A stretch of 63,000 nt of DNA, counting the filler, from Reclinomonas americana ATCC 50394 (taxonomy: Eukaryota), in assembly GCA_048213135.1 (NCBI GenBank). It is 15 parts of 15 records of this genome, joined end to end, with 100 filler letters (N's around TTAATTAATTAA, not from the genome) between each part and the next. Parts side by side here need not be neighbours in the genome. Positions count along the whole stretch, not along the records: positions 30,024 to 34,430 come from AFZH01017709.1; 14 more parts are not named here. The stretch is one strand, 5' to 3'. Every line of letters starts with the position of its first letter. The stretch's first letter is position 1. Shown here one piece after another: positions 13,920 to 38,265 of the stretch. The position numbers were made by a program, and so were the translations under genes. A model generated the notes under the pieces. That model searched no databases. It worked only from the letters and a program-made list of their open reading frames with translations, and was not told the origin of the DNA.

Positions 13920-14109
13920 ATTCTTCTTCTTCTTCTGTTGCTGCCTCCTCCTCCGCCGCACGTGTGCTGGCATGTACCGGAGACGCGTGCAGTCACACGC
14001 GCGTGTGTGCGTGAGGGGTGTGTGGCAGAGTCGGAAGTTGAAAGATGAGACGCCGGACAATTGCCGTATTCACGACGTCGATATCGGGGCGCAACAAAGA
14101 AGGTGATGA

Positions 14110-17014
14110 CTACGTCCAACCCTGTCGCTTTTTGACCAGTAGACTTTGACTTCCTAGGCTGCCAAGGGTCAAGGGTTCGAGAGTGAAGAGCACGAGGGTC
14201 GCGACGTCAACAGTTGAGGCATAGTAAGGTTGCCGTTGGAATGCAAGCGAAGAGGAGACGTAGGTTGCCGAGATCACGCGCTCTTCGACAAAGACATGGT
14301 CTTTGGACACAGCAAGATCTAACACTTTTCATTATCACTATACCCGCACGTACACCAGATAATCTGCGTCCAACAGAGTGAGTACCGCGAACGAATTGGA
14401 ATACAAAGTGAGGCGAAGGACGACGCACGAGGAACGGCAGTGGGATCGGGAATGTGCTCGCCCACGGCAGTCGCCTCCGACACGCGATGCACTCGCTCGT
14501 CGTCCATCACCAGCCACGTGCGCAGGCTCGGCGGTCTGACGTACACAAAGTTGTGACCGTCCAGCTCGAATCCCGTGTGCATAATGACGCTGCGCACAAG
14601 GAAGAAGAGGAGGTGAGGAGGAGGGCCAACTCCCGCATTAAAGGAGAATACGTAACGCTCGCAGCTCGTAGCGTGCATGCATCGGCTCGGCGCCGCCACG
14701 GCGAAAGTACAACATGGGTGGTCGAATGAAACCCTGGCCGCGCGAACAGTGTTTCTGCGTCATTGCAGATGGTGAGAGAGCGCAATGAGACACCATCATT
14801 CGCGCACGCTGTGCGAACACACCTTCCGCAGTGCGTGCTCCGTCACGTGCTCCATAAAACTGGCGCTCTCGTACCAACCAGTCACGAAACAGCACAACAC
14901 CGGCGGCATCTCCCACAGCAGCATCACGTGACTGCCACCGACCTATTCACACTTGCGCATTCAGCATCCCCAAATAGGGTAGAGTGCACCGTTGAGCGCT
15001 ACACACTCACCATGTGAGGCTCTTCCGGTGGTCGCGCATCGTCCCACATGGTATCCGTACATTCGACGCCAATCGCCGCGTTGAGATAAGGCGCTAGCGC
15101 CCGAACCAAATGTCCTTCCTCANNNNNNNNNNNNNNNNNNNNNNNNNNNNNNNNNNNNNNNNNNNNTTAATTAATTAANNNNNNNNNNNNNNNNNNNNNN
15201 NNNNNNNNNNNNNNNNNNNNNNTGCACTGGCACGTACTCGGTGTGCAGCATGGTCTGTGCGACACATTGGTGAGCACAACGTGCATGACTCACGGGTCCA
15301 GCCACACGCTCGCACCTGCAGCACACACGCGGCGTAGCAAATGGAGCCTGTGGGATTGTGCAAGCCGCGGAATGGCATTTCGTATCGCGGCACATGACGC
15401 AGTGGAAAGTCGGCCATCACCACCACCGGTCGCAACTGTCGCACCGCCGCGGATCGCTGATGTGCGCGTGACAGAGCCGCAAATGCGCCGTCACCAGCAT
15501 GCGAACTGCACGCGAAGACAGCAACAACACGAATGAGAGAACAAGCACGACCACCGTGAGTGCAAGAGCTTCCACGAACCTGCCATCGTCGGGAATTTCG
15601 ACGCGCACGAGAGCCTGCGGTACTTGCAACGTACGATTCTCGCCCTCCTCCCACGTCAGATCCTTCCACGCTACCTCTGCGCGCGCACCTCTTGCGGTGC
15701 ACACGGCGTACTTGTATCTGGATGGAAGAAGACATAAGCAGCGAGAATGAAGAAACACATCTCCACGGCCAACGCAACTGCGCAGAACCGTCGTCCACGG
15801 CAACCGTGGGTAATGAGACACAGCAGTGCCACACTCCGCCGTCGCCCAGTGGCGCCAGTTGAATGCCGGGTGGTGAACGGCTGCCCCAGCAACCTAATCC
15901 GACACAAGTGAGCTTGGTGTGCAGGAACGGACTCCGTCACAGCACATGCACACACCAAGTGGCTCCAGTGTTCCTTGCAGCACCACCACTGGCCACTCAT
16001 CGTCGCCACGAGCGTGTCGCACCACTTGTGAGCACTGCACACGAACATACGTCGCCACCTGCACGTGGACTGATTCAGCGACACCAGCGAGGGCTGGAGC
16101 GGTCGGAAAAACCACACAAGCACACACCAACGACTCATCGCCCAGTTCATCCTCCGACATCATCGACACAGTCGCCAGCACTTCATCCAGCGACACTTGC
16201 AGCTCCGACGATCGCCAAAACTGTGCACGCGGTGAGTCGCTCGGAGTAATAGGACCATTATAAACACCGCAGCGCAACATTCTCCGCGCCAGACTCCACC
16301 CAATGATCGCGAATGACAACTGGCCAAGACAATGAGTGCGCGCACCAACCAAACATAGGAGGGGGAGGAGGAAGAAGAACGCACAAGGCGACAAAACGGG
16401 CGTGGCGACCCACAGCGACTCATGTGCCAACAGTTCCCGATCGAGACCATAGGCACCCTCCCAGACGCATCCATCGCCTCCGTCATGCTCTTGTTGCGCC
16501 CCCATCACACAGTACTTGTACACCACCAGTGGTAGCGCAGCAGTGTCGGCGAACTCCTCCGCGTGATCATCCACAGTGAGCTGCACCTCGCTGTTTGTTG
16601 TCCACACAGAGCGAGTGAGTTGTCTTTCTCTTCTCTCTCTCACACACAGGCTCTCAGGCTCTCTGTTCTCTCGCTCTCTGTCCCTCATTCTCTCTCTTTA
16701 TCTCTCTCAATCTCTCTCTCCCTCTTTATCTCTCTCTCTCTGCACTCAACTCAGAGGTCCACCAGTCACCCGCACTCCAGTGCAACTGCACTGCGCTTTC
16801 GTGTGGATTCCACGAGAGAGGATGCGAGGTGTGTGTGCGAACACTGCCCAACTCGCCACACAGTCGCACCTTTGCAAGCATCATGTCAGAGAGAGAGAGT
16901 GAGAGAGAGAGAGAGAGAGAATCACAGTGTATGTGGAGAAGTACATGTGCCCACCTCTTGACCAAAGGCCACAGCGCGTTGAATGCACCAACGCACTCGG
17001 TACACTCTCGGCAT
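14110..17014 (-). CDS. Tandem CBM20 carbohydrate-binding modules fused to a USP (peptidase C19) deubiquitinase; spans the gap at 15123-15222
   Basis: CBM20-1: VRWCIQRAVAFGQEVRLCGE...SWNPHESAVQLHWSAGDWWT...YKYCV...VWEG..DREL. CBM20-2: VVLQGTLEPLGCW...GVWHCCVSLP...QYKYAV...WEEGENRTL. USP Cys box GLHNPTGSICYAACVLQ, His box GHNFVYVR..WLVMDDERV. TAG at 14110. Confidence 0.72.
15123..15222. other. Artificial contig linker N44-TTAATTAATTAA-N44 (first of 14; others at 17131, 26988, 29924, 34431, 36478, 40058, 44062, 46806, 49858, 52038, 54075, 56293, 61105)
   Basis: Identical 100-nt spacer each time, with stops in all six frames. Confidence 0.98.
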
Positions 17015-23830: not shown

Positions 23831-24003
23831 TCGGTCGGCATTCATATCTCTCGGTTGGGGTTTACAACAAATCTCGGCTGGGGTTTACACACCTCGGTTG
23901 GGATTTCTTATATCTCGGTTGGGATTTCCATAAACCTCGGTCGGGATTCAACAACTTGGGTTGGGATTTCTTATATCTCGGCTAGGATTTCGACCGGGAT
24001 TCA
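23831..24003. repeat. Degenerate tandem array of about 9 copies of a 20-23 nt unit (TCGGTTGGGATTTC core)
   Basis: Units start at about 23831, 23851, 23874, 23894, 23915, 23937, 23957, 23978 and 23990; intergenic, just upstream of ATG 23738. Confidence 0.85.
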
Positions 24004-29923: not shown

Positions 29924-30128
29924 NNNNNNNNNNNNNNNNNNNNNNNNNNNNNNNNNNNNNNNNNNNNTTAATTAATTAANNNNNNNNNNNNNNNNNNNNN
30001 NNNNNNNNNNNNNNNNNNNNNNNATAGTTAGCTAAGCAGTCTGGAGACTGTATACAATGTCGTCGATGCGTGGCGGGAGAGATTCATTGTGTGGTTGACG
30101 CGCCAACGAGGCGGGGAGAAGCTGGCGA

Positions 30129-31488
30129 TCAAAATTCGTTGTACTTTTGGCGTCGGCTCCTGGCGCGCTCCGCCGGGTACTTGACGGCATTCTGCAACGG
30201 CACAGTGTGTGCAGAGGACAAGACGCAAAGCTCACTAACTACCGATGCACGCAACGGCAGCGACTTTCTTGGGGATTGCTGTCGACAAGTCGATTCTGCA
30301 AGCATGGCATGCACAGTGAGCGGCGGCAACAACACAAACACAGCGTGCAACTACGCAACCCCGCCACATCCGCCATGCGCACGAGCAGCACCATCACATC
30401 GCTCATCTCCTCCGCCACGCGTTCCTTTTCCGCTGCACCACCAAGCCATGAACAGTCAAGAGGGAAAACGAGAGATGAGTGAGTGCCATCATGCATACCG
30501 ACAGAGAAGCCAGGCAGCCCCGGTGCAGCCTCTTGATCCGTGCGCCACTGAAACAGCTGCGCAAGCAGTCAGTCTGATGACCAGGTGGACAGACGATCTC
30601 GTTCCACAAGCAGCACCTCGGCCAGTTCACCCATTTCTCCGACCGCCGCCAGCAGCAGGTTGCGCGGATTGTGATATTGGTGCCAGTCGCGCTCGTCCGC
30701 AAATCGAAACTGCGCCGCTCGGATCTACCATCCCACACGAGTGAGAAACGCACGCGCAGAAGACACAAAAGGCAGTCATCGATGCCGCAACATCTTCCAG
30801 ACTCAAGTTGGTGGAAAACGCTCGTCCACCTCCACTCCCACTCGACGACGACGACGAAGCCGACGACGCAGCTGGTGGTGCAGGTGGTGGTTCGCTCACT
30901 GCGGCAGCAGCAGCAGTCGGCCTGGTCGCTGCTTGTCTGTGCTGCTGCTGCTGCTGTTGGTGTTGGTGTTGCTGAGGAGGAGCAGGCGCACTGTGACAGG
31001 CGCATAGTGAGTCGCACAGAGAGACACTGACTGCAAGAGCGCATCTCACCGCATTGCTGTTGCTGTCGCTGCTGTTGCTGCTGGTTTCCTCTCTTCTGTC
31101 TTGGCTGGTGAGCGCTCTCGCTTGCCACTTCCGCCACCTTTGCGTGTGCATGCATGTAAGAGTAAAGAGAGAGAGAGACACACACACAAAGAGAGAAGAG
31201 CGCAACGTCGTCTGCTCGAGCCCTCATCTCCACCTCCGCCCCACAGAGCAGCGGCAGTTGATTGTGTCACAGTGAGGTGACCAGAGACAGGCGAGGTGCC
31301 TGCACGCACGTGTAAGTGTGTGTGTGAGTGTGGGAGAGAGAGAGAGAGTGCGTGTCACCTGTGAGTGGTGTTGTCGCGGTTGCAGCTGGTTTGTTGACTG
31401 CAATGGGCGCGGAGGAAGGTGGCGTGCTGCCAGGCACCGCAGGCAGCTCGTCTTCTGTCTCGTCGGCCCACTTGTGTGCTCCGCTCAT
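30129..31488 (-). CDS. DCTPP1: dCTP pyrophosphatase 1 (MazG-like) with a low-complexity N-terminal extension
   Basis: SLED|IRAAQFRFADERDWHQYHNPRNLLLAAVGEMGELAE...EEMSDVMVLLVRMADVAG..IDL..NAVKYPAE. Confidence 0.88.
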
Positions 31489-31809
31489 TGCAAATTTCTG
31501 TCAGATATCACAAAGCAGGACACAACTCACTGTCGTTTTCTGCTCAAGCAGCTACTGGCGTGGGAGGAGAGACGCACAAAGATTGGTGTTCTTCTGATCC
31601 GCAGTTGTCTGCATACGCGGACTTCCAGCATGCGCAGCAGCAGAAGAGGCAAGTCGTGGAAGTCAACTTCGCGGTTTCCGCACTTCAACGCGCTCGTTTC
31701 TTACACTTTTCTCTCTCTCTCTGTCCCTCTGTGTTACGAGTGGCGCTTACATGCTGCAGTGGGCTGTGGTTGAGCTGTCTTCCATCCATGTCCTGCAGCG
31801 ACGTTTGCC

Positions 31810-32489
31810 ATGGATCGCGCCTTGCACGCAGAGATCGCGCGCATTTGCGATGAAGAAGGTCTCACAGGCAGACAGACACACCCTCACAAAGTCACTGTGT
31901 TGCTGACTCGTTTTCTCATCTCTCTTAGCCTCCACGCGCGGAGGATTCTCGTTTGACAAGAAAGCAGTGTCGGCGATCACTGAGCTGCTGGGTGGCATCA
32001 TTGGTGCGTCGCAGACACACACACACACTCTGACAGTCACACACAGTGACTCACACATTGCGTATGCTGCAGACGTGCTGGCCAGTGACCTGGACGGTGA
32101 GCGATCAAATTGTCGAAGACAAATCGATGTCGACTCACTGTTTTGTTTCGTCTCCGCCGTTGTGCAGCCTTTGCGCAGCACGCTGGACGCAAGACGGTGA
32201 CACCCGACGATGTGCGTCTGTTCTGTCGTCGCAACTCGGCCTTGTCGGAGTTCGTCAGTGGCATGATTGAGGAGAGGAAGGCGGCGGCCACGGAGAAACC
32301 AAAGCGCAAGCCGGCGGCCAACAAGAGACCAGCCACTGCGGCTGCCTCGGTGGGCTTTGTGTGGAGCCCAACTCCCTCTCTGTGTGTTTCTTTCCCGATG
32401 TACTGATTCCTCAGTGGCAGGGTGGACCGTCGGAGAAGCGTGGGAAAAAGGCCGCACGACAGCAGGCAGAGGTTGTGGACGATGACTGA
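31810..32489 (+). CDS. CENPS: Histone-fold protein CENP-S/MHF1 (start uncertain)
   Basis: Spliced LHAEIARICDEE...FDKKAVSAITEL...VLASDLDAFAQHAGRKTVTPDDVRLFCRRNSAL; TGA at 32487-32489. Confidence 0.88.
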
Positions 32490-32730
32490 GTGAGTGGGGG
32501 TGCCAGCAACCACTTGCCTGCTGCGTCGGCGACTGATGCAGTCGCGCTCACGCGAAGAGACGCAGAGGGACAAAGAGACGTCACAAAATGGGAACATGAA
32601 CAAAACCCACCACGTTGTCTGTGTTGTGTGCGATTGATTCACTCGCCAAGCCCCACCATGCTGGAAATGTTGTTGTTGTTGTTGTTGTTGTTTCGTCTCC
32701 TATCCCATCTCTCCCCCAACTCTCACAAAG

Positions 32731-33064
32731 GTACGACGAGCGAGTGCCGCGCTCACATGCCCTGGCACACGCGAGTTGCGCGCGTGGAGATTTGCTCCAC
32801 CCCCCGATTCGTACCAAGCCGCGGTTGCCGGTCACTCTCCCCTCGCTCGTCCCCCACCCTCCGACACCAAGATGGTGGAACCTGTGCATGCAGTGAAACC
32901 GAGACACGGTGCGCCAACGTAACTTTTTGAGCAAAACAGGGGGGGCGAGGGGGAGAGCGACCGTGCAACCTGCGACTTGCCGCACGCTGCAGTAATCGGG
33001 GAGGGCTCTCCACAGCGCGCGGTTAGCGGTGCAGGGCACGGCAGGCAAGCTCGCGTCGTCGTAC
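32731..33064. ncRNA. 334-nt rod-like imperfect fold-back (candidate structured ncRNA or non-autonomous fold-back element)
   Basis: Colinear helices: 32731-39/33056-64, 32740-44/33050-54, 32758-64/33032-38, 32778-83/33015-20, 32784-90/33007-13, 32802-09/32994-33001, 32815-22/32972-79, 32823-28/32965-70, 32829-42/32950-63. Confidence 0.6.
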
Positions 33065-33184
33065 AAAGAGAGAAAGAAGAAGATAATAGAGGAATACAAG
33101 AAAGGTCAAGAGAGGAGAAGGAACAAGCGGAAACTTGGTGTTGGTGGTGCTGGTGACGGTGGTGATGGTAGTGGTGGTGCGGAA

Positions 33185-34353
33185 TCACTCTTCCGGTAAT
33201 CTGTTGACGTACTCGGCGAGTTTGACGCAGTCGAATCGTGGTGTGTTGCGAGGTGGTAGGGGGACGCCGAGCTCCAACAGCCAGTCGCACAACAGCGCAT
33301 CAGTGTCGAAGGCCAGCTCTTGTTGCAGGAACGACAGGTCGAGCGTCGGGCGGTAACTGTGTGCGTCAGTATGAGGAAAGTGTGTTGGCGTGGCTGCAAT
33401 CAAGGCAACGCGCGCGCGCACACGCACACACACCATCGTGACATCATCTTCAGTGCGCGCACTCGTACTCTGGAAATAAACACGTCAATCAGATAGCCTC
33501 CCATGTTAGGCGCTGTGCGATACAGTCGGAAGAATCTGCGATTTTCCAGCATTGTGAGTGTCTGTTGACTCGTCTATCACTCATTCTCTTGGCACACAAC
33601 TTTTGATAGTCCAGGATGCCGGGGAACTTCATGTCTGCGGGGCCGAGGGCGGCGCGCACCTCCAGAGCGTGCTTGATGGCTTCCTGTTTCTTGTCTTCGG
33701 CCGACAAGGATGCAAGCAAGAGAGTGGCCTCTGCGCCCAATTTTGAGCAAGGCGACTGATGATTCAACGTGGTGCATGCAACATACCTCGTGCCGATTTG
33801 GAATACAGCGAGTGCAGAATGCGATACGCCGTAAACTCCACCACGTGCCCGTCGAGGCCACTGCTGTACAGAGAGAGCAGCTGGCCCAGGCACTGTGTGT
33901 ACTGGCCAACGTCGCCCTGCAGTGCGGCATGAGCACCGAAACACAGAGGGGGAGAACGCATCGGCGACACACACCTGCTCCAAGGCGATGCGTGCGTGCG
34001 TTTCGTAAACTTCCACTGTGAACTCATTGCGAATGCGTTGTACCTGAGCAGCGGAGTACACAATGAGCACGAGAAAGTGCATCCAACCGACACAAAAAGC
34101 ACGCAACGGTGAGATCCTGTCGAATGCTCTTCAGCTGGTGCCACGCGTACTTGTAGTTGTGATCCTCTCGCCACTTGCGCTTGACCAGGCGGAGACTTTG
34201 CACGAGGATGCGTTCGGGGCGCACCTTGGTCGGGTCCGGCACATCTGTGAGGCGCAAGTATTCCTTTTCGAGATCAGTCGAGGTGCCGACAATCACCGAG
34301 TCCATCATCAGTCCGTCGTCGTCGCCACCGGCGCTCACGTCGGACGATGACAT
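33185..34353 (-). CDS. LENG8: SAC3/GANP-domain protein LENG8/THP3 (5' incomplete)
   Basis: IVGTSTDLEKEYLRLT.VPDPTKVRPERIL...[47 protein letters not shown]..LY...EFTAYRIL. Confidence 0.9.
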
Positions 34354-34530
34354 GGGCTGCACAAACAAACAAACACGCACAGGCGATGTCATTTCACACA
34401 TTCCGCACACACACATATCCCGTGCACACGNNNNNNNNNNNNNNNNNNNNNNNNNNNNNNNNNNNNNNNNNNNNTTAATTAATTAANNNNNNNNNNNNNN
34501 NNNNNNNNNNNNNNNNNNNNNNNNNNNNNN

Positions 34531-34692: not shown

Positions 34693-36267
34693 ATGTCTGG
34701 CGGCATGGAACGCGTGATCACAATGCGCGAGAACCTTCTGTTTCGTTCCCCGCTTCCTTTTTGGTCGCCTTTTTGTGTGTGTGTGTGTTTCATTGCTGAT
34801 TTGTTGGTTTTTTAGCTCGCCTGACACGTGCGACAAGCTGGCACTGTTGGAGAAGCAAGGCATTCGCGAGTTGTTGCGTCTGCGCCCATTGTTTTCTCGA
34901 AAAATGTGAAGAAAAAACGCGCTTACATGCTGACACACAGTGAATCCAAGGGTCCTCCTCTCTTACGCATACACTCTCTGTGTGTCTGTGTATGTTGCTC
35001 ACACTCGCGCGCACAGTCATTGTTCTGGGGGACTCGGAAGTCGGTAAAACCTCGCTGCTCAGATGGTCTGTGTTTTTTTGCTGTCATTTTTACATCAATG
35101 AGAGAGAGAGCTCATGAGAGAAAACAAGGTTCATGCAACGCAAGTTTGAGCAGCATTACAAGAACACCATTGGGGTCAGTTGCCTCTCACAGTCCCTCAC
35201 ACAATCTCTGACGTTTTCTCACTCGTTGATGCGTCTGTTGTTAGGCCGAGTTCTCGATCGCCAAGGTCCTTTCAGCATCATGTCCGCCTCCTCTGTTGGT
35301 CTCTTCGCCCACTGTTTCTCTCTCTCTTGTGCAGTTCTTCTTCATGGGCAAGCTGCTCAAGCTGTCATTGTTGCGTCTGTGCGATAGTGTGTGTGCCTGT
35401 TGTTGATCACCGACTGACACTGTGGCGGACACAGAGTGGACACTGGTTGGTCACGCTCTCTCTCCCAGCCATCGCTTGATCGCTTGGCTGTTTAACTCTC
35501 TCTCTCTCTCCCTCTGCCTCTGTTCCTCTTGGCACAGCTGGACAGGAGCGGTTCCAGTCCATCTCGCAAGTGTACTATCGTGGAGCTCGTGCTGTGCTGC
35601 TGTGCTACGATGTGACGAATCCGACGACGATTGGTGGCATTGATCGGTGGCTGGAGCAGGTGGAGAAGTATCGTGATCGGGAACGTGATAACATCCTTAC
35701 GCCAGTGGTCGGGTGCAAGGAGGATGCTGTTGCGTGGGGGAGTGCCCGCTGGCCTTTGCCGGTGTGAGGTCTGAGGTTTTTGTGTGTGTTGCTGTGGCAG
35801 TTGGAGGATCCGGCGGAGCTGCAGGTGGCCACGGAGCGTGGATTGCGCAAGGCCAAGGAGCTGCACGCGTCGTTTTACACGACCAGTGCCAAGACGGGAG
35901 ACGGTTGCGTGCATTCCTCTCGTGCACTAGGACCAGGTGGAAGGGGTGGCTCACGCGTGCCGTGAACTGCGGGCAGGTATCGATCGATTGTTTTCCGATT
36001 TGGCTGTGCACTTGCTGGAGCTGGAGGTAGAGGAGCGATTCCGACCGCAAGCCGCGGCCGAGCGAGGAGGAGGCAGTGCGTCCGACTCTACACGGATTGC
36101 TGGTTTCGTTGTGATCCCATCTTGCCCTCTTCGCCCACTGTTCTGTCATCCATCGCCGTTCCACAGTGAATTTGATGCCGACGGATGCCGATGTTCTGGA
36201 AGGTCGTGGCGGTCGCGACGCCGATGGCGACAGATCGCGACCGGTGAAGAAGAAAGGCTGCTGTTGA
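34693..36267 (+). CDS. Divergent Rab GTPase (Rab34/Rab24-like features)
   Basis: SKVIVLGDSEVGKTSLL, YKNTIGAEF, VDTAGQERF, YYRGA, VGCKED, TSAKTG; ends KKKGCC-TGA. Confidence 0.88.
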
Positions 36268-36381
36268 CAGGGCCTGCGCCAGCCTCGAATCTCTCTGTTT
36301 TCCGCACACCACGAAACAAAATGTATTCTCGCTCGTCTCTGGTGCCGAATAACAACAACATTCATCTATGGCTGCCCAACC

Positions 36382-38265
36382 TCACTGCGCACTCTTCAGC
36401 AAATTGCGCAGCACAAAGTGCAGGATGCCGCCGTGCGCGTAGTACTCCAGTTCTACTGGCGTGTCGAACCGGCAAACNNNNNNNNNNNNNNNNNNNNNNN
36501 NNNNNNNNNNNNNNNNNNNNNTTAATTAATTAANNNNNNNNNNNNNNNNNNNNNNNNNNNNNNNNNNNNNNNNNNNNTTTGCCATCCTCCCAGGCAATGG
36601 TAGCACGCTTCTCCTGCTGATCAGGCGGCACCGCAAAGCCCTTGTGGCCGAGACGGTTGCTGAGGCACTGCAGGAAATCGGTCTTGACGTCGGTCAGTGG
36701 CACACGATCCTGCGGGCGCTTGGGTCCCGCCACACACGGCACGACGGTCGACAGGTCCAGCTCCAGCACCTCTGAGAAAGTCGGCTCGGGAGAGTCGTCC
36801 TCGCGGAACAGACCCTGCGCACGCAGGTAGCGGCCCACCATCGACACGGTCTCCTCCGAGCGGCCTGCCAACGCACCACAAAGCAAGTTTTGAGATGTTC
36901 TGCGTCGACACACTCTGCTCAACAATGATATACGCACCACTCTGGCGCAGGTAGCCCAGCGTCTGCTCATCCACCGGGAAGAAGCCGACAGTGGCACCGT
37001 ACTCGGGAGCCATGTTGGCCAAGGTCGCACGATCGGCAATGCTCAGCTGGTTGACACCGCTGCCAAAGAACTCCACAAACTTGCCGACAACTCCGTGCGC
37101 GCGCAGCGCCTGTGTAATGGTCAGCACCAGATCTGTGGAGGTGGCCTGCGGCGCCAGGTGGCCGACGAGACGGTAGCCGACCACTTTCGGCAGCACCATT
37201 GAAATCTGGTCAGGCCAGCACTGGATCAGTATGGGGGAAGAGAAAACGGCAGTGGGGAGGTGAGTGACTATTGTGCAGACGCACCGGCTGGCCCAGCATG
37301 CTGGCCTCGGCCTCGATGCCACCAACACCCCAACCCAGCACTCCGAGACCATTGATCATCGTGGTGTGCGAGTCGGTGCCGACCAGGCTGTCGGGATACA
37401 GCAGTCCGCCGCTCTTGAAGACGACGCGCGCCAAGTACTCGAGGTTGACTTGGTGCACAATGCCCGCACCGGGCGGCACAATCGTCAGCCCATCGAAAGC
37501 GTGCGCGCCCCACTTGAGGAAGCGGAAGCGCTCGACATTGCGCTCGAACTCACGCGCCTGATTGATCTCGACGGCGTCGGGAGTGCGCGCCGCATCCACT
37601 TGCACCGAGTGATCAATCACCAGATCGACGGGCACCAGCGGGTTGATGCGTCGCGGATCGCCACCCAGTCGCACCATGGCATCGCGCATGCCCGCCAAGT
37701 CCACGATTCCCGGAACACCGCTGCGCAAAAAGAAAAAAAGTTACTATCTTCTCTCACAATCGCGCACGAGGGAGATGGGAGAGAATGCACGTAAAGTCTT
37801 GCATGACAACTCGGGCGGGGCGGAACGGCACCTCAATGTCCTCATGCGACAGGCGCTCCCAGTCGAGAATGTTCTGCACGGCCGATTCATGCACCGTGAA
37901 ATTGTCGCAATTACGCACCGACGCCTCCAGCAACACACGGATCGAGTACGGCAATCGATCTGCACTTCCCAGGTGAGAGACGCGGACATGTTATTCACCA
38001 CCATGTCGAAACACTCGAGTCCTCACCAACACGAGAATCTTCGAGTGCGCGCAGACTGTAGAACTTGGCACCGCTCTCCGCGTCCTCCACCAGCACACGA
38101 TCAAACGGATTCGCTGGGGGGCACACACACAAGCACACGCGCGCAATGAGCAACACAGAAGCGCATGAAATGCACTTTTTTCCGCACGTGCACATATGTA
38201 CAATGCAGGCACGCCATACAACACACAAAGAGAGAAGACAAGAATTCGCGAATTCGCTTACCCAT
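36382..38265 (-). CDS. ACO1: Cytosolic aconitase / IRP1-type AcnA (middle hidden in the gap at 36478-36577)
   Basis: [77 protein letters not shown]-terminus [22 protein letters not shown] on the adjacent contig. Confidence 0.95.

Follow-up and report, generated by a model that had tools for sequence, protein, structure and literature searches.

A 334-nt fold-back between convergent CENP-S-like and LENG8-like genes that looks most like a worn miniature transposon

Made1, a palindromic MITE of the human genome, measures ~80 bp, is flanked by a TA duplication and occurs in thousands of copies. The arms of Foldback (FB-type) transposons consist of tandem subrepeats, extend over kilobases and are accompanied by 9-bp duplications. 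Hairpins of MITEs are known to have given rise to miRNA genes, and Made1 is the source of hsa-mir-548 (PMC1784062). In the Micromonas pusilla introner IE1, the splice donor is carried by the element and the acceptor is co-opted from the target-site duplication (TSD), as the excerpts of PMC11282704 describe it. The same excerpts characterize the non-conventional introns of euglenids by non-canonical borders and by pairing of positions +4 to +6 with positions -8 to -6, usually as CAG/CTG (PMC11282704).

Here we examine a 334-nt imperfect fold-back, at 32731-33064, that lies in the spacer of two tail-to-tail genes. It had been singled out from the sequence by an earlier reading, hereafter the original prediction, and was analysed within the window, that is, the whole 63-kb stretch of DNA considered. 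Real but fairly ordinary, the fold-back most resembles an aged and worn miniature transposon and less a structural RNA, whether of a known family or under selection.

Fold-back structure and genomic setting

The locus comprises the following features, in order of position.

32415..32489, plus strand: last coding exon of the CENP-S-like gene with its TGA stop (32487-32489), from exon/intron frames read by hand
32490..32541, plus strand: putative intron of 52 nt adjoining the CENP-S stop, GTGAGT...CTGATGCAG, with motifs as in 12 other hand-read introns
32727..32730: left AAAG, candidate copy of a target-site duplication, by direct reading
32731..32856: left arm of the fold-back, C-rich (40% C), beginning GTACGACGA, from the helix lists of both strands, composition and arm alignment
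32857..32938: apex, non-palindromic, 82 nt, with small local hairpins including CACCA-AGA-TGGTG, from the folds of both strands
32924..32928 (T5, plus strand) and 32934..32937 (T4, minus strand): T runs in the apex, from sequence reading
32939..33064: right arm of the fold-back, G-rich (42% G), ending TCGTCGTAC, from helix lists, composition and arm alignment
33065..33068: right AAAG, candidate copy of a target-site duplication, by direct reading
33185..33356, minus strand: last exon of the SAC3/GANP-type, LENG8-like gene with its TGA stop (33187-33185), from tblastn and sequence reading

The original prediction had claimed a colinear fold-back and had named the folding of both strands against dinucleotide shuffles as its check. 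Folded as RNA, the plus strand reached a minimum free energy of -178.6 kcal/mol against a mean of -136.6 (sd 5.4) for 100 dinucleotide shuffles (z -7.82), and the minus strand reached -190.6 (z -7.72); on either strand, none of the 100 shuffles equalled the element. With DNA parameters the plus strand gave -101 (z -7.27). Since the skew of the arms could inflate the signal of the element as a whole, the left arm, the apex and the right arm were also shuffled apart, a control that keeps the C-rich/G-rich contrast. Against these arm-wise shuffles (200 each) the z-scores were -7.8 and -8.2, and the best shuffles reached only -151.8 and -157.1. The unchanged z indicates that the fold is sequence-specific rather than a product of composition, which rules out a composition artefact and bears out the claimed fold-back. 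In a 340-nt sliding scan of the plus strand over the entire 63-kb window, the element ranked first of 666 windows.

The closing stem is perfect at all nine terminal pairs (GTACGACGA/TCGTCGTAC) and is followed by a 1-nt bulge and then by 5-6 further pairs. On the minus strand, 11 colinear helices of 9, 5, 9, 6, 7, 9, 5, 8, 6, 14 and 5 bp, plus shorter ones, make up the structure, and the rod contains 100-107 pairs. Overall, ~70% of the bases are paired and the G+C content is 62-64%. By the helix list, the termini are the best-preserved part of the element. Within the apex, whose fold differs between the two strands, both the hairpin CACCA-AGA-TGGTG and a CTGT/ACAG fork were seen, so that the perfect 9-bp termini and the apex hairpin plus fork of the original prediction are both present. 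If transcribed, the element would be expected from these folds to yield ~100 bp of double-stranded RNA.

Apart from the element, the long inverted repeats of the window are only N-linkers and microsatellite pairs. Smaller, unrelated hairpins were noted as a clean 16-bp stem at 23865-23910 (z -6.9), a 116-nt hairpin at 13925-14040 that consists in part of CA/CG repeats (z -5.2) and a CT/GA microsatellite hairpin at 60330-60405 (z -6.2); none of the three has sequence in common with the 334-nt element.

Upstream on the plus strand, the ORF at 32101-32406, the exon before the last one of the CENP-S-like gene, matches Pfam CENP-S (PF15630, E 1.3e-08), and four GT-YAG introns were read by hand in this gene. 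The putative intron at 32490-32541 would be either a 3'UTR intron or the mark of an alternative C-terminus. For the gene on the minus strand, tblastn aligned two PF03399 proteins (P0121/P0122) along the LENG8-like exons, with their C-termini on the last exon; the Pfam SAC3_GANP match to exon 1 is weak (E 0.0019, below the cut-off), and a protein search with a LENG8-like exon returned two distant proteins. Further into the same gene, at 33434-33731 (minus strand), the intron between ...ALEVRAAL and ...LENRRFFRLY was not placeable by eye.

The two stops are separated by 695 nt (32490-33184), in agreement with the ~700 nt originally claimed, and the element is 241 nt away from the CENP-S-like stop and 120 nt away from the LENG8-like one. 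For comparison we took the convergent pair formed by a Rab-like gene (plus strand, ending KKKGCC*, stop 36265-36267) and an aconitase gene (minus strand, stop 36384-36382), which lie 114 nt apart. The accompanying claim that convergent gaps are short elsewhere thus stands for this pair, the one checked. The genome is very compact and the CENP-S-like/LENG8-like gap is unusually long, six times longer than the Rab-like/aconitase gap; the presumed insertion makes up 338 of its 695 nt. At 36265-36384, the 114-nt spacing means that the convergent 3' ends there must be very short or overlap.

Introns are small and uniform in this part of the window: the 13 read by hand between 31859 and 38026 measure 52-79 nt, begin with GT and end in YAG (12 CAG, 1 TAG), and most carry a CTSAY-like branch motif no more than 30 nt from the acceptor. 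Simple repeats lie on both sides of the element, a (TGT)8 microsatellite at 32668-32692 to its left and a TGG-type repeat at 33136-33180 to its right. The 3' flanks of the CENP-S-like and LENG8-like genes are each rich in pyrimidines on the sense strand of the gene to which they belong.

The contig around the element is uninterrupted from 30024 to 34430. Across the window there are 14 spacers of the form N44-TTAATTAATTAA-N44, from 15123-15222 to 61105-61204 and including 29924-30023, 34431-34530 and 36478-36577. The core TTAATTAATTAA is a six-frame stop linker, and linkers of this type are a common means of joining contigs. Aconitase runs across the spacer at 36478-36577 on one strand, with residues 4-416 on one side, residues 864-894 on the other and ~450 codons missing; we accordingly read the spacers as gaps of unknown size rather than as random joins. 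The best database identity of the aconitase exons (36587-38111, minus strand) is ~80%, with Andalucia at 82%, Acrasis at 79% and Euglena and Diplonema at 77% each, and with Cavenderia also among the relatives. By these identities, the source organism appears to be without a close sequenced relative in the protein collections searched.

Flanking repeat and arm divergence

AAAG abuts both ends of the element exactly, at 32727-32730 and 33065-33068, as had been claimed. A 4-mer match at the spacing of the element occurs at 374 of 60,022 window positions, a chance of 0.6%, although the weight of the repeat is modest, as it was spotted post hoc and the right flank is purine-rich.

Alignment of the left arm (126 nt) with the reverse complement of the right arm gave 99 matches, 12 mismatches and 15 indel events, the arms being ~89% matched. 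The mismatches comprise 10 transitions and 2 transversions, and the indel events span 30 columns. Indel events therefore outnumber substitutions between the arms, which is unusual under plain neutral decay.

The original prediction had pointed to three pairs, 32757/33039, 32819/32975 and 32834/32958, that are G.U on the minus strand, and had taken them as mildly in favour of a minus-strand RNA. The three pairs are as described, but the bias does not survive a count over the whole rod, which has 7 G.U pairs on the minus strand versus 5 on the plus strand. Such a near-even split is expected from random transitions in a DNA palindrome and not from a single functional RNA strand, and a minus-strand bias was ruled out.

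Decay was also simulated by introducing random transitions, transversions and indels, in the observed numbers, into a perfect hairpin (n=120). The simulated hairpins had mean energies of -198 (plus) and -206 (minus) kcal/mol versus the observed -178.6 and -190.6, and 97% (plus) and 92% (minus) of them were at least as stable as the real element, with the caveat that the arm alignment may undercount changes and so leave the simulated hairpins too stable. Because most simulations were the more stable, the changes in the element do not appear to have been placed so as to spare the structure.

Coding, known-RNA and copy searches

ORFs across the element have a flat G+C content by codon position (0.53-0.62), compared with 0.6-0.7, 0.35-0.45 and 0.7-0.78 at the three positions of real exons nearby, and no ORF overlapping the element matched Pfam. 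The lack of both a Pfam match and a codon-position periodicity in G+C rules out a coding exon.

Scanned against Rfam at E values up to 10, the region 31500-34500 returned no model for SRP RNA, RNase P/MRP, telomerase RNA, U3, ribozymes (hammerhead, HDV, twister) or viroids. This agrees with the absence of a ribozyme core noted in the original prediction, and it extends to the conserved motifs of viroids. The same scan leaves the suggested SRP-like RNA unsupported, since no SRP family, with its Alu and S domains and helix 8 motif, appeared even at E = 10. Four matches were obtained in the region, all far below the gathering score and one of them outside the element; the only ones on the element are to plant miRNA-precursor models, MIR1023 at 25 bits (gathering score 90; E 0.022) and MIR5380 at 19.5 bits (gathering score 150). 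These sub-threshold scores reflect hairpin shape only. Over the whole window, an Rfam scan at the gathering score found no family, and a tRNA/tmRNA search found none. The promoter and terminator scan was of a bacterial type and is uninformative for a eukaryote. A run of four or five Ts of the kind found in the apex would stop RNA polymerase III; with T5 on the plus strand and T4 on the minus strand, this polymerase would thus terminate within the hairpin on either strand.

Other copies were sought within the window and beyond it. With a word size of 7, blastn of the element against the 63-kb window recovered only the element itself, including a 43-nt arm-to-arm match, and chance matches of at most 36 nt. 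The best of the chance matches, a 15-nt exact one at 14489-14503, sits in coding-looking sequence, and the 18-nt terminus, allowing up to 3 mismatches, matched itself alone in the window. No transposase-type domain was detected among the 102 window ORFs of at least 165 aa. TRF found no tandem repeat inside the element, which rules out an FB-type element with tandem subrepeats in its arms.

Outside the window, a 39-mer had no match in viral contigs, an exact 27-mer had none in metagenome contigs and blastn had none in phage and plasmid records. A degenerate pattern fitting both termini occurred at at least 118 metagenome loci, with one match in each of the 80 inspected. These loci were discarded as copies: blastn of the element against the 118 listed loci aligned at most 34 nt and never extended beyond the 18-34-nt seed, as expected of chance. 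None of the collections is known to contain the source organism, and the blank searches outside the window are therefore weak evidence that the element is single-copy.

Origin of the element and comparison with known systems

The original prediction had left two readings side by side, a small fold-back mobile element with a 4-bp target-site duplication and a structured ncRNA under selection. The former fits best. The latter has gained no positive support, as there is no Rfam family and the stability is not above that of a randomly decayed hairpin. Our preferred, though still tentative, reading is that the element goes back to the insertion, with a 4-bp duplication, of a non-autonomous MITE-like fold-back that is now solitary, aged and without demonstrated function; we infer both the transposon origin and the absence of a present function. 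A fold-back DNA element belonging to the MITEs or palindromic MITEs would have inserted between the convergent CENP-S-like and LENG8-like genes, duplicating the 4-bp target AAAG, and would afterwards have decayed through transitions and small indels. A read-through transcript from either gene would fold into an imperfect ~100-bp hairpin, which could in turn be cut by RNase III-type enzymes.

Judged by the properties that define MITEs, the element has terminal inverted repeats (9 of 9 terminal pairs), a candidate target-site duplication (AAAG on both sides, spotted post hoc) and a small, non-coding body (334 nt, no Pfam match, no codon periodicity), and for the multi-copy family there are 0 further copies in the 63-kb window. 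Insertion is preferred over local inverted duplication because the termini are the best-preserved part and the 4-bp flanking repeat is direct. Against a MITE stand the failure to find a second copy, a family being what defines a MITE, the lack of a transposase-type domain and the excess of indels over substitutions. Survival of the element in a genome with 114-nt convergent gaps could hint at retention by selection. If the MITE-like reading is true, the locus is one more worn miniature transposon, chiefly a matter of annotation, and the insertion explains why the gap is six-fold longer than that between the Rab-like and aconitase genes.

The alternative that survives best, an unlikely one in our estimate, is an inverted duplication in situ, in which fold-back priming or template switching during the repair of a spacer break copied one arm from the other, the AAAG repeat is coincidental and decay came later. 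Such an origin would suit an element that is single-copy in every collection searched and that has an 82-nt non-palindromic centre, which is typical of fold-back priming. Long palindromes are unstable, and the 15 small indel events fit this instability. Each arm also shares the pyrimidine-rich sense composition of the adjacent 3' flank, and the wobble pairs are without strand bias. What duplication in situ does not predict is an exact AAAG direct repeat, with its 0.6% chance: copying into the flank by fold-back priming would probably have yielded CTTT, so that the direct repeat fits a staggered-cut insertion better. The best-preserved termini, too, resemble transposon ends.

Somewhat less probable again is a functional long-hairpin locus, whether an hpRNA, a young miRNA-like precursor or an RNase III-dependent element of 3'-end formation or termination, which may have been exapted from a MITE or from a duplication in situ. 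The rod offers ~100 base pairs on either strand, is reachable by read-through of both genes, at 241 and 120 nt from their stops, and has been kept in a very compact genome. Its sole Rfam matches are to miRNA-precursor models, led by MIR1023 (25 bits, E 0.022), but these lie far below the gathering scores (25 versus 90 and 19.5 versus 150) and follow from hairpin shape only. The G.U pairs are without strand bias and the stability is at or below neutral expectation, both of which argue against a selected RNA. A general requirement for such a hairpin at 3' ends is contradicted by the Rab-like/aconitase gap, whose 114 nt leave no room for a 334-nt hairpin. Should small RNAs arise from the hairpin, its length and its site between convergent genes in a very compact genome would suit it well to trigger RNA silencing or the cleavage of 3' ends.

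There is a slim chance that a mobile fold-back leaves the transcript or the DNA as an exact 338-nt unit made up of the element and one AAAG, either as a spliceosomal introner outside the coding region or in circular form, an AAAG loop then capping the 9-bp terminal stem. In the introner version, to which we likewise assign a low probability, GT would come from the element and AG from the downstream AAAG, and removal of 32731-33068 would restore the pre-insertion sequence CACAAAG/AGAGAAAG in the 3'UTR of the CENP-S transcript. The start GTACGA resembles local donors (GTGCGT in 3 of 13), and a putative intron already follows the CENP-S stop. In the excerpts of PMC11282704, a donor within the element and an acceptor from the TSD are likewise the design of Micromonas IE1. 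However, the unit of 338 nt far exceeds the 52-79 nt of the 13 hand-read introns, its acceptor is AAG where all 13 local introns have YAG (12 CAG, 1 TAG), and its last 30 nt hold neither a CTSAY branch-like motif nor a pyrimidine tract. Nor does the element lie within a coding region; the searches turned up no family of copies, blastn revealed no similar introns in the window, and the GT/AG coincidence was spotted post hoc. The euglenid non-conventional pattern, as excerpted, does not apply either: pairing here starts at +1/-1, and positions +4 to +6 read CGA instead of contributing CAG/CTG pairs with -8 to -6. If a family with GT...(TSD)AG ends existed, it would bear on the conversion of transposons to introns; if the excisable 338-nt unit were true, the locus would present a recognisable ancestor-state of that conversion in a deep-branching protist with tiny, uniform introns.

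It is very improbable that the locus is a gene for an already described structured RNA, such as SRP RNA, or that it was copied into DNA from a viroid-like RNA circle with a rod fold. The rod-plus-fork shape, the length of 334 nt, the G+C content of 62-64% and the ~70% of bases paired recall such RNAs, and the AAAG redundancy could equally be a circle overlap; for the viroid-like version this would give a 338-nt unit, the element and one AAAG, closed by an AAAG loop. Both versions conflict with the Rfam scan, in which no model for SRP, RNase P/MRP, telomerase, hammerhead, HDV, twister or viroids came up even at E = 10, with the apex runs of T5 (plus) and T4 (minus), with the symmetric use of wobble pairs, with the lack of matches in viral contigs, phages and plasmids and with the location in a nuclear scaffold among intron-bearing genes. 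If the MITE-like reading is true, the hairpin should not be called an SRP-like or viroid-like RNA. Least credible of all is an assembly artefact, a chimeric fold-back read or contig in a fragmented assembly (14 gaps in 63 kb), as amplification or ligation chimeras give perfect inverted copies whereas here 12 substitutions and 15 indels separate the arms, a unique centre of 82 nt lies between them, and well-formed gene ends follow on both sides.

Set beside described systems, the element shares its size and its rod with a forked end with SRP RNA and viroid-like rods, and differs from them in its lack of a covariance-model match, its internal T runs, its symmetric wobble pairs and its integration in nuclear DNA. 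Like hpRNA and young MIRNA loci derived from inverted duplication, it is a long imperfect inverted repeat with the capacity for ~100 bp of dsRNA. Those loci are defined by small RNAs mapped to their arms and often show similarity between an arm and a target gene, whereas the arms examined here have no other match in the window. In Foldback (FB-type) transposons, too, long inverted arms dominate around a unique centre; the tandem repeats that TRF would register in such arms are missing from the element.

In contrast to euglenid non-conventional introns, the local introns are conventional GT-YAG introns. Introners, as far as the excerpts of PMC11282704 and PMC12130899 describe them, resemble the element in being MITE-like, with terminal inverted repeats, a short TSD, a GT in the element and an AG in the TSD, and in that excision restores the original sequence, as removal of 32731-33068 would here. 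They are, in those excerpts, multi-copy families of spliced introns in genes, whereas the element is a single copy that does not lie in coding sequence and has ~4 times the length of even the longest of the 13 local introns; its acceptor is AAG, and it lacks a branch motif.

The element differs from Made1 in its 334 bp, its AAAG repeat, its arms, ~89% matched with many indels, and in that no second copy was found. What it shares with palindromic MITEs, as exemplified by human Made1 in the excerpts of PMC1784062, is a small, non-coding body that forms a full-length hairpin from terminal inverted repeats, together with a short flanking direct repeat, a site near gene ends and a potential hairpin RNA.
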